Sequence record: PQ330092 | From: Escherichia phage JP4 | DNA length: 64,000 bases | Reading direction: 5' to 3' (one strand) | Shown: one piece after another, positions 59,185 to 60,317 of the stretch | Numbering within the stretch: the stretch's first letter is position 1 | Layout of the letters: every line of letters starts with the position of its first letter | Program-made: the position numbers and the translations under genes | Notes under the pieces: model-generated | What the model saw: only the letters and a program-made list of their open reading frames with translations | What the model was told of the DNA's origin: nothing | Database searches by the model: none

Positions 59185-59602
59185 GTTCTACATAGAGAGA
59201 TGAGTTGCTGCGAACAATTCATTTACTCTACCTCCTGTCGTGAGACAGTACAGAAAAGATAGTTCCTCCTGTGGTGGTACATCTTTTTGAACCTCATATG
59301 AAAATTGTAATAACAGTACTGATATTAACAGAATGGTGTCAGTACTGATTTTAATCTAAAGCATTATGCCACCAGCACAAGCTGGTGGATTCCCTCTAAC
59401 AGTATTCAGTACTACATGATAGTCTTCATCCTCCTAGGGTAACATAGTGAGGGCTATGATGGCAGTACTGAATACTCCCTTTCAAAAGATAGATCTATGG
59501 TATAGTACTGACGGATTTTGGGTGTAGTTACCCTGGATGGATTTTGGACGTAGATATGTCTAGCCCTCCAGAAGTCTGGAAGTAAAGATGGCTATCCATC
59601 TA

Positions 59603-59669
59603 GACGGCTAAACGGCTAGATTTCTGGATGGCTGGATGGCTAGACGTTTGGACGGCTAAACGGCTAGAT
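59603..59669. repeat. short direct repeats (iteron-like)
   Basis: gacggctaaacggctagat at 59603-59621 and 59651-59669, embedded in reiterated ggatgg / ggctag / gtctggaagta units. Confidence 0.55.
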
Positions 59670-60317
59670 GGTTACACGTCTGGAAGTATAGACGGCTAAA
59701 TCAAAATTTTATTTTGTTTTTCCAATAGTTCCCCTACCGCGTGGGGATAGTTTCCCCGCAGTATCTGTAGTTAGATTTTTCTGAATCTGGAATCATTATC
59801 TTATAAACTGGGGGCAATGTCAACGACCTGGCCGGATATTTTTAAAAATTTTTTCAGTACTGAATTTTGGGCGTAACTATGCACCCGGTGGGCTTGAGTC
59901 TTTCTCGACTTGATGGAACTATTATACAGTACTGGAAAAATAAAGCAATACCCTGGATGAAAAAAGTTTTAATTAATTTGCTTGCCATCCTGGGCCGGAC
60001 TATGGTACTATATTTCAGTACTGAGAAAGTGCGTTTACCTGCTAGGGTGCGGGAGTGTATCCTTTTTTTATATCTTGAATTTTGGGCGTAATTCCGCACC
60101 CTCTGGGGTTTCCGCTTTCTCGCGTCTATGTAGTAATTATACGCTTTTTCAGGATCAAGTCAATACCTAAAAACAAAATAATTGAAAATAATTTAACGCG
60201 TTTAAACGGCCTGTAAAGCCCTGGAATGATTGGAATGGTGCAAATGTATAGCTTATGTGTATTAATGCGTTAGAATGCGTCTGAGGCCGTTTTATGGGGT
60301 GTAGTAGTGATTTGGTT

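Follow-up and report, generated by a model that had tools for sequence, protein, structure and literature searches.

Terminal repeats of jumbo, T5-like and T7-like phages carry a putative super-array of host MetJ operators

A phased array of 8-bp units

Escherichia phage JP4 (sequence record PQ330092) is an Asteriusvirus, i.e., a PBECO4/121Q-like jumbo coliphage, and this study concerns a dense repeat cluster in a 64,000-nucleotide stretch of its genome, hereafter the window. At 59546-59697 the window carries a single uninterrupted head-to-tail array of 8-bp units, all in one phase, with the consensus RGAYGKCT. Its core, at 59586-59697, is made up of 14 abutting units resembling the operator boxes (metboxes) of the host methionine repressor MetJ, an assignment based on a metbox matrix with its decision rule, on shuffled sequences and on a substitution-constraint test. 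In order, the core units are AGATGGCT, ATCCATCT, AGACGGCT, AAACGGCT, AGATTTCT, GGATGGCT, GGATGGCT, AGACGTTT, GGACGGCT, AAACGGCT, AGATGGTT, ACACGTCT, GGAAGTAT and AGACGGCT, with 11 distinct sequences among the 14. A 5' extension at 59546-59585, in phase with the core, consists of two strong boxes (ATATGTCT at 59554, 8.57 bits, and AGAAGTCT at 59570, 8.63 bits) alternating with three sub-threshold units, and several of the extension units pass as boxes in phages 121Q and A4.

A preliminary description of the locus had reported an iteron-like cluster of direct repeats, offered as a binding site for a replication initiator or a terminase. The 19-mer GACGGCTAAACGGCTAGAT on which it centred is indeed present at 59603 and 59651, with no further copy in the window, and the two copies are exactly 48 bp apart, a distance of six units of the 8-bp array. 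The other reiterated units were recovered in part: GTCTGGAAGTA[AT]AGA occurs at 59574 and 59678 only and TGGATGG at 59534, 59625 and 59633, but exact GGCTAGAC is found just once (59638), its other copies being variants such as GGCTAGAT and GGCTAAAC. What had been overlooked is the organising principle, namely that all of these repeat pieces belong to one 8-bp-periodic array. The locus is thus a dense direct-repeat cluster of the protein-binding kind, as described, but its units are 8 bp long, abutting and spacer-free, unlike the 17-22-bp iterons that are spaced on the helical repeat.

This consensus is reminiscent of the E. coli metbox AGACGTCT, a unit of 8 bp found in abutting tandem copies, and the array was therefore scored with the information-weight metbox matrix and decision rule of Augustus & Spicer 2011 (PMC3228920). 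Under this rule, each box has to reach at least one quarter of the consensus score (3.15 bits) and the site total at least the consensus score (12.58 bits). The sole passing site in the window is 59586-59697, where 14 consecutive in-phase boxes, every one of them at or above 3.15 bits (mean 7.3 bits per box), sum to 102.8 bits against the threshold of 12.58. Dinucleotide-preserving shuffles of the window (n = 200) gave a longest run of three boxes, and 2000 shuffles of the local 800 bp a longest run of two; the repeat cluster is far beyond chance. Of all 8-mers, only 1.05% qualify as boxes and 0.1% score as high as the mean of the array, so that a random 8-bp repeat would fit the matrix in some phase less than ~1% of the time. 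As a control, the rule was applied to 8.5 kb of E. coli K-12, in which it recovered the metJ/metB operator (four boxes, 31.2 bits) and the metF operator (four boxes, 24.9 bits) and nothing else. Per box, the phage array scores as high as these authentic operators or higher, with three to four times their number of boxes. As in MetJ operators, at least two boxes abut in exact 8-bp register, and at positions 1-5, 7 and 8 the bases occur at frequencies that parallel those published for metboxes (A>G at 1, G>A at 2, A at 3, C>T at 4).

The way in which the units diverge from one another is likewise not arbitrary. When the 25 differences between the boxes and the array consensus were redistributed randomly with a transition bias, the mean score was 3.2 +/- 0.85, compared with the observed 7.35, and none of 20,000 such trials retained all 14 boxes above threshold (P<5e-5). 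The between-box differences are confined to bases that the matrix tolerates, and with 11 of 14 boxes distinct the array is not a fresh microsatellite. Among ten Asteriusvirus strains, the length differences are all whole 8-bp units (-48, -16, -8 and +8 bp), giving 10-17 boxes. Such unit-number polymorphism is what slippage produces, and viral and bacterial contigs commonly contain 8-bp microsatellites that fit a loosely defined box pattern, which would suit a neutral, functionless minisatellite. Those microsatellites are, however, monotonous, with one or two distinct units; the divergence of the units is strongly constrained, and the same locus is kept across three genera with similar arrays in three phage families (see below), which makes a neutral origin scarcely credible. 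The contrast comes from degenerate four-box pattern scans (28 IMG/VR loci and at least 120 GTDB loci), which returned mostly monotonous 8-bp microsatellites from unrelated taxa; these scans are uninformative on an association with MetJ and serve here for contrast only. In the same scans, monotonous microsatellites (e.g., AGCCTTCC repeated 8-9 times or GGATGGCT repeated 8 times) were seen at the extreme ends of several IMG/VR viral contigs, and at both ends of one 54-kb contig. An enrichment of CTAG was also considered as a signature of the array, which contains five copies, and was dropped because another 144-bp stretch has five as well.

Place in the terminal repeat and recurrence in other phages

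The array lies close to a genome end. Window position 59000 corresponds to nt 209 in records of relatives with resolved ends (nt 219 in vB_Ec-M-J), which places the left boundary of a direct terminal repeat (DTR) of ~21 kb at 58792; the records of ELP-22 and vB_Ec-M-J start there, at the left physical end of the virion DNA, and that of vB_Ec-M-J annotates direct terminal repeats at 1..21525. The array is thus found 754-905 bp inward of the left end of the DTR, within 1.7 kb that are free of ORFs, and in the right-hand repeat copy this end of the DTR is the inner repeat/unique junction. Its nearness to the virion-end cut is shared with pac/cos-type terminase sites.

Conservation was high. The 1.4 kb around the array match 41 phage records, 30 of them at 95-99% identity, and sensitive BLAST searches with the array region gave 89 array-bearing records. 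The preliminary description had held that its reading would fall if the repeats were not conserved in related phages; they are. In Eneladusvirus (Serratia phage BF, Erwinia phage pEa_SNUABM_12) and Mimasvirus (GAP32, XbC2, CBB) the array lies ~650-850 nt from the genome start, the CBB record annotating a repeat of 22,456 bp, and in Yersinia phage fHe-Yen9-04 it occupies nt 5-100 of the record. The flanks are syntenic among the jumbo genera: GAATTTTGGGTGTA precedes the array, TTCCAWTAGYTCCCCTWCCGCG follows it, and a small hairpin is kept intact by compensatory changes.

Arrays were also found in two further families. T5-like Demerecviridae that infect Vibrio, Aeromonas and Providencia have it within the untranslated injection-stop (iss) region of the terminal repeat, beside perfect DnaA boxes, and more precisely between the DnaA-box pairs and repeats of the GTGCAAATCCGAC type. 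Box counts are 9 in Vibrio phage pVp-1, 15 in Pontus, 28 in AhSzq-1 (221 bits) and 2+15 in AhP_Mru1, and Providencia phage PR1 has nine near-canonical boxes (e.g., GGACGTCT and AAACGTCT; 88.5 bits) at 9620-9691 of its 10,461-bp repeat. The T7-like Ermolevavirus phages PGT2 and phiKT have a DTR of 260 bp with nine boxes at nt 38-109; the PGT2 array is 82.7% identical to that of Asteriusvirus over 75 nt, a likeness that suggests exchange between coliphages. The jumbo and T5-like regions have nothing in common outside the array: blastn-short against eight T5-like and T7-like loci returned only chance-level matches there (all E >0.29). A module shared with the T5 iss was considered because of a 13-nt match, GCGTTAGAATGCG (window 60267, T5 9349), and was rejected, since the match is at chance level in blastn-short and DnaA boxes are absent from the window region. 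Searches of 5,426 complete E. coli genomes and of 72,556 plasmids yielded no such array. In all three families, the arrays found are confined to terminal repeats and lie less than 1 kb from a boundary, and in each phage the array sits in one of the largest non-coding stretches.

Since the array occurs in three unrelated families, and since the jumbo and T5-like surroundings are themselves unrelated, the factor acting on it in trans should be common to all, most simply a protein of the host. On the same grounds, direct binding by a phage-specific initiator or terminase is disfavoured. The MetJ regulon is confined to five gammaproteobacterial orders, and 88 of the 89 array-bearing records belong to phages that infect three of these, namely Enterobacterales, Vibrionales or Aeromonadales; metJ is present in E. 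coli. A MetJ homologue is absent from the phages, as tblastn against 50,697 phage records returned bacterial contaminants only. Most likely, judging from these sequence comparisons, the array is a super-array of host MetJ operators placed in the phage terminal repeat and common to three phage families, and occupation of the array by host MetJ in vivo is considered probable, at somewhat better than even odds. Literature searches turned up nothing that connects MetJ or metboxes with phage genomes or terminal repeats, and the genome papers of fEgEco12 and CBB make no mention of the array.

The binder could instead be encoded by the phage, e.g., a ribbon-helix-helix regulator, a small terminase or another end-recognition protein whose site resembles a metbox and which acts in packaging or end recognition. 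The proximity of the array to a physical terminus or DTR boundary in all three families would fit such a role, as would the hundreds of uncharacterised small proteins in these genomes and a G at box position 6, by which all groups depart systematically from natural metboxes. However, a 42-kb T7-like phage would then need the same DNA-binding protein as a 350-kb myovirus although the families are unrelated. The lack of a MetJ homologue in phage records also speaks against it, as do the seven neighbouring ORFs tested, which have no DNA-binding domain, and close relatives, such as T5, that do without the array. A phage-encoded binder is, on balance, unlikely. As for the terminase site of the preliminary description, the location does fit, at ~0.8 kb from the physical genome end, and the array may have some connection with packaging or the processing of ends, but the same array recurs in three phage families, with unrelated flanks in jumbo and T5-like phages, and it is probably not a direct terminase site.

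Promoters, hairpins and genes around the array

Two strong promoters point at the array from either side. On the plus strand, a sigma-70-type promoter with the perfect consensus TTGACA-16-TATAAT (12/12) is found at 59157-59184, ~370 nt 5' of the array. On the minus strand, a near-consensus promoter, TTGACA-17-GATAAT (11/12), is found at 59795-59823, with a predicted start at ~59788, ~91 nt from the last box. The array is thereby bracketed by convergent promoters, of which the leftward one serves no gene and has a weaker counterpart in CBB.

Several short elements accompany the array. An upstream motif on the plus strand, GGATTTTGGGTGTAG / GAATTTTGGGYGTA, is located at 59513-59527 and repeated at ~59539, ~59862 and ~60080, i.e., in four copies in the non-coding region; cross-genus alignment places one copy of GGATTTTGGGTGTAG directly 5' of the array in Eneladusvirus and Mimasvirus. 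The last box is adjoined by an A/T-rich tract, AAATCAAAATTTTATTTTGTTTTT (59698-59719), with a T-run at the same place in the other genera, followed on the plus strand by a downstream block, TTCCAATAGTTCCCCTACCGCG (59720-59741), that the same kind of alignment shows to be kept in three jumbo-phage genera. A small hairpin, GGGG-ATAGTTT-CCCC, then follows at 59743-59757, 45-60 nt 3' of the array, identified by covariation and folding. Its stem is preserved by compensatory changes, with the pairings GGGG/CCCC, CTAG/CTAG and CTGG/CCAG found among Asteriusvirus, Eneladusvirus and Mimasvirus; across seven sequences 100% of the cells are paired, three of the four pairs have changed on both sides, and the covariation score was reached by none of 500 shuffles. 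In Serratia phage BF, a terminator-like hairpin for rightward transcription is formed by the last two and a half boxes (CGTTTAGACGGCTAAACG) and the T-run (780-797), and the same hairpin is present at the same place in GAP32, CBB and XbC2.

With strong promoters aiming into the array from both sides, a terminator-like hairpin closing it in other genera and a conserved hairpin adjoining it, the array might act as RNA, i.e., as a non-coding transcript of 8-nt units that serves, e.g., as a sponge for an RNA-binding protein. The invariant positions, however, follow a quasi-palindromic DNA operator matrix, and Rfam gave no match in 58000-61000 except a chance snoRNA (E 0.95). In CsrB-type sponges, GGA is the motif bound by CsrA; only about half of the units contain GGA, and a CsrA sponge was rejected on this ground. 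Moreover, PGT2 has only 37 nt between the array and the genome end, hardly enough to accommodate an upstream promoter. A role as RNA is accordingly rated very improbable.

A similar judgement applies to an origin of replication, in which the repeats would act as iterons binding an initiator, the A/T-rich tract would unwind and the leftward promoter would supply a primer or R-loop. Indeed, the 22-bp A/T-rich tract adjoins the array, the strong leftward promoter aims at it from ~90 nt, and cumulative GC skew reaches a local minimum at about 58.5-59 kb. On the other hand, an abutting 8-bp unit is unlike known iterons, no DnaA box (TTWTNCACA) is present in 58600-60500, and no initiator-like gene adjoins the array or lies nearby. 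The skew was discarded as evidence for an origin, because the point at which it changes sign, ~58.8 kb, is also that of the DTR boundary and in the rest of the window the skew tracks gene orientation. T5-type origins map near the genome middle, outside the terminal repeat (Davison, bioRxiv 10.1101/866236), whereas the arrays lie within terminal repeats, in PGT2 even inside one of 260 bp. The replication-initiator site of the preliminary description is thus not upheld, and the odds of an origin here are very small.

The surroundings of the array are poor in genes. The open reading frames (ORFs) of the window include no evident real gene in 58610-60465, where the G17 annotation likewise has no coding sequence, and the array itself is free of overlap with ORFs of 30 aa or more. 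The first DTR genes encode small proteins of unknown function, and searches of seven neighbouring ORFs against Pfam and PHROGs retrieved families of unknown function only, with no DNA-binding or replication domain. The first DTR gene has its own promoter at ~60441-60468. The listed start of this ORF, 60466, falls within a -10 box (TTGCAC-16-TATAAT), and the true start is probably the ATG at 60523 (MATQINK...). Just 5' of the gene, at 60316-60408, a unit of ~40 bp, TTGATTCAGTACTGAATAATAGTACTCCTATATAGAAAGA, is present in two copies 53 bp apart. On the other side of the boundary, ~8 tandem paralogous ORFs of ~60 aa (MHKEYY...; phrog_11711, function unknown) extend over 56987-58528 and end ~260 bp before the DTR left boundary. 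These ORFs are on the plus strand, yet the GC skew there is negative; it flips sign at the boundary (~58500-59000), from about -0.2 to about +0.1, although the small ORFs on either side are all on the plus strand.

A further sequence feature of the window is the palindrome CAGTACTG, which occurs 52 times in the 64 kb, where roughly one occurrence is expected for a random 8-mer, and AGTACT occurs 233 times. Examples of the palindrome are found at 59131, 59171, 59314, 59340, 59463, 59855, 59927 and 60016. In near-consensus promoters the palindrome lies between -35 and -10, abutting TATAAT, and it is likewise found at the -10 box of the promoter at 59157-59184. The palindrome may belong to promoters specific to the phage, or it may serve as an operator. 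A SlmA site was considered and rejected, as the bases flanking the palindrome do not fit the SlmA consensus.

A possible barrier at the repeat edge and comparison with known systems

If host MetJ binds, its loaded form could serve in cis. In the favoured proposal, to which a probability of about 0.4 is given, MetJ carrying S-adenosylmethionine (SAM) would polymerise on the array and form a nucleoprotein barrier, or boundary element, at the edge of the DTR. SAM-loaded dimers would sit one per 8-bp box, each contacting its neighbours, and cooperative polymerisation on 14-16 abutting boxes would yield a nucleoprotein block of ~110-150 bp. Such a block could keep RNA polymerase, and perhaps other machines that travel along DNA, from passing between the terminal 0.75 kb and the early region; in a concatemer, or in the right-hand repeat copy, it would prevent crossing of the repeat/unique junction. 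Early transcription at the genome end, and perhaps also a stepwise entry of the genome or the processing of its ends, would in this way be coupled to a host protein that reports the SAM level. The proposal is built on the recurrence of the array less than 1 kb from a repeat boundary in all three families and its location in the T5-type iss region, together with the convergent promoters that flank it and the terminator-like hairpin in BF, GAP32 and CBB. For T5, a model has been put forward in which host DnaA, bound to its boxes, stops injection, the mechanism still being debated (Davison, bioRxiv 10.1101/866236).

The same operators could also act in trans, as a decoy or sponge. Two array copies per genome, amplified by replication, would drain free MetJ-SAM and derepress the host genes by which methionine and SAM are made or taken up (metE, metF, metK, metNIQ and others), supplying methionine and SAM for phage protein synthesis and DNA methylation. 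All sequence evidence for MetJ binding applies equally to such titration, 10-28 boxes are far above the need of one promoter, and placement in the DTR doubles the dose. Variable copy number, sporadic presence (T5 lacks the array) and apparent horizontal spread (PGT2) are traits of accessory host-manipulating elements, and relatives such as XbC2 encode several SAM-dependent DNA methyltransferases. A cell, however, contains hundreds of MetJ dimers according to published proteomics, and with such numbers the 30-odd boxes of an entering genome would titrate little before replication. T5-type phages degrade the DNA of the host early in infection, which would make the derepression of host genes pointless for T5-like carriers. 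Furthermore, a decoy could sit anywhere, yet all arrays found are in terminal repeats, less than 1 kb from a boundary. We infer that a barrier in cis is the favoured consequence of MetJ binding, and titration is regarded as unlikely.

A number of observations weigh against MetJ as the binder or against the barrier at the repeat edge. Box position 6 is G in ~55% and T in ~45% of the phage boxes, compared with T in 87% of natural boxes, and many phage boxes would therefore have one weakened half-site. High-confidence natural metbox sites are mostly within about 75 bp of a translation start (PMC3228920). The array is not at the promoter of a methionine gene, its nearest genes encoding small unknown proteins, and its 14-16 boxes lie 0.8 kb from any gene, whereas the two natural operators recovered have four boxes each. 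The single record outside the orders named above is Xanthomonas phage XbC2, with 14 boxes (2+4+8; 648-775), as Xanthomonadales are not among the MetJ orders. XbC2 is a Mimasvirus of 37.5% GC reported on X. vesicatoria, which has about 65% GC; it may represent a recent or questionable host assignment or host jump, or else a true counter-example. By matrix scan, E. coli phage T5 itself is without the array, so the element is dispensable for DTR biology in general. Distance to the nearest boundary varies: it is ~40 bp in PGT2 and ~750 bp in the jumbo phages, and in PR1 the array is ~770 bp away from the boundary on the opposite side. Since the arrays occupy large non-coding stretches, their position may merely reflect where insertion is tolerated. 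Finally, Serratia phage BF has no leftward promoter that reaches the scan threshold.

A broader and more tentative scenario, held to be somewhat doubtful, is that three unrelated lytic families, namely Rak2-like jumbo myoviruses, T5-like phages and T7-like phages, acquired a MetJ super-operator, in part by exchange among themselves. A plug built by the host would then pause entry or transcription at the repeat edge and make early infection SAM-dependent, and in T5-like phages of hosts other than E. coli it would be a missing component of the iss, a signal long without an explanation. In PR1, AhSzq-1 and pVp-1, the metbox array fills the slot that the repeats at 9540-9720 occupy in the T5 iss. 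Those T5 repeats contain GAATCATTATCATTC, which may resemble the Fur box GATAATGATAATCATTATC; this hints that iss regions collect sites for host repressors.

Should MetJ bind, a repressor of host metabolism would serve lytic phages at their genome ends in a structural or regulatory capacity, a use for which no earlier report was found. MetJ would then be a candidate protein for the cis-acting end regions of long-DTR phages, including the T5-type injection-stop region, and infection would be tied to the SAM/methionine state of the host, which is relevant to restriction, methylation and phage anti-defence. The array is a compact natural sequence expected to bind ~14-28 MetJ dimers and may be useful for titration or as a roadblock that responds to SAM. 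In permuted jumbo-phage assemblies, as deposited, it also indicates where the true genome ends lie.

Compared with known systems, the array shares features with several and is matched by none of them fully. Like the origin iterons of plasmids and lambdoid phages, it consists of clustered direct repeats beside an A/T-rich tract, but those iterons are ~17-22 bp long and helically spaced, their initiator is encoded nearby and DnaA boxes are usually present, and the array has none of these. The IHF site in lambda cosB is a phage cis element that uses a host DNA-binding protein, and datA is a locus that titrates DnaA. The array resembles these as a cis element for a host protein or as a cluster of sites soaking up a regulator, with another protein and another architecture; we know of no role of either type for MetJ. 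With the iss, or Repeat Region 3, of the T5 left terminal repeat (Davison, bioRxiv 10.1101/866236) the locus has in common a large, untranslated and repeat-rich edge of a long DTR with (pre-)early genes, and the DnaA boxes of the iss, like putatively the array, are clustered sites for a host DNA-binding protein. The window region lacks DnaA boxes, which in the iss are paired and accompanied by IRD'/IRC', DRE and DRD repeats, nor does it show similarity to the iss outside the array; on the conventional map the array sits at the other boundary of the repeat, T5 is without a metbox array, and Asteriusvirus is not known to inject in two steps. The closest likeness is to MetJ operators themselves, which also consist of abutting quasi-palindromic 8-bp units (consensus AGACGTCT) in strict phase, with the same positions tolerating the same alternative bases. 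The array differs from them in its number of boxes, 14-16 and up to 28 in Aeromonas phage AhSzq-1 as against four in the two natural operators scored, a three- to sevenfold excess, in a position 6 that is G about as often as T, and in its location in the terminal repeats of lytic phages rather than beside a methionine gene or any gene. Judged by sequence it is built like a MetJ operator, and judged by context it departs from one; it is not regarded as an ordinary member of the class.

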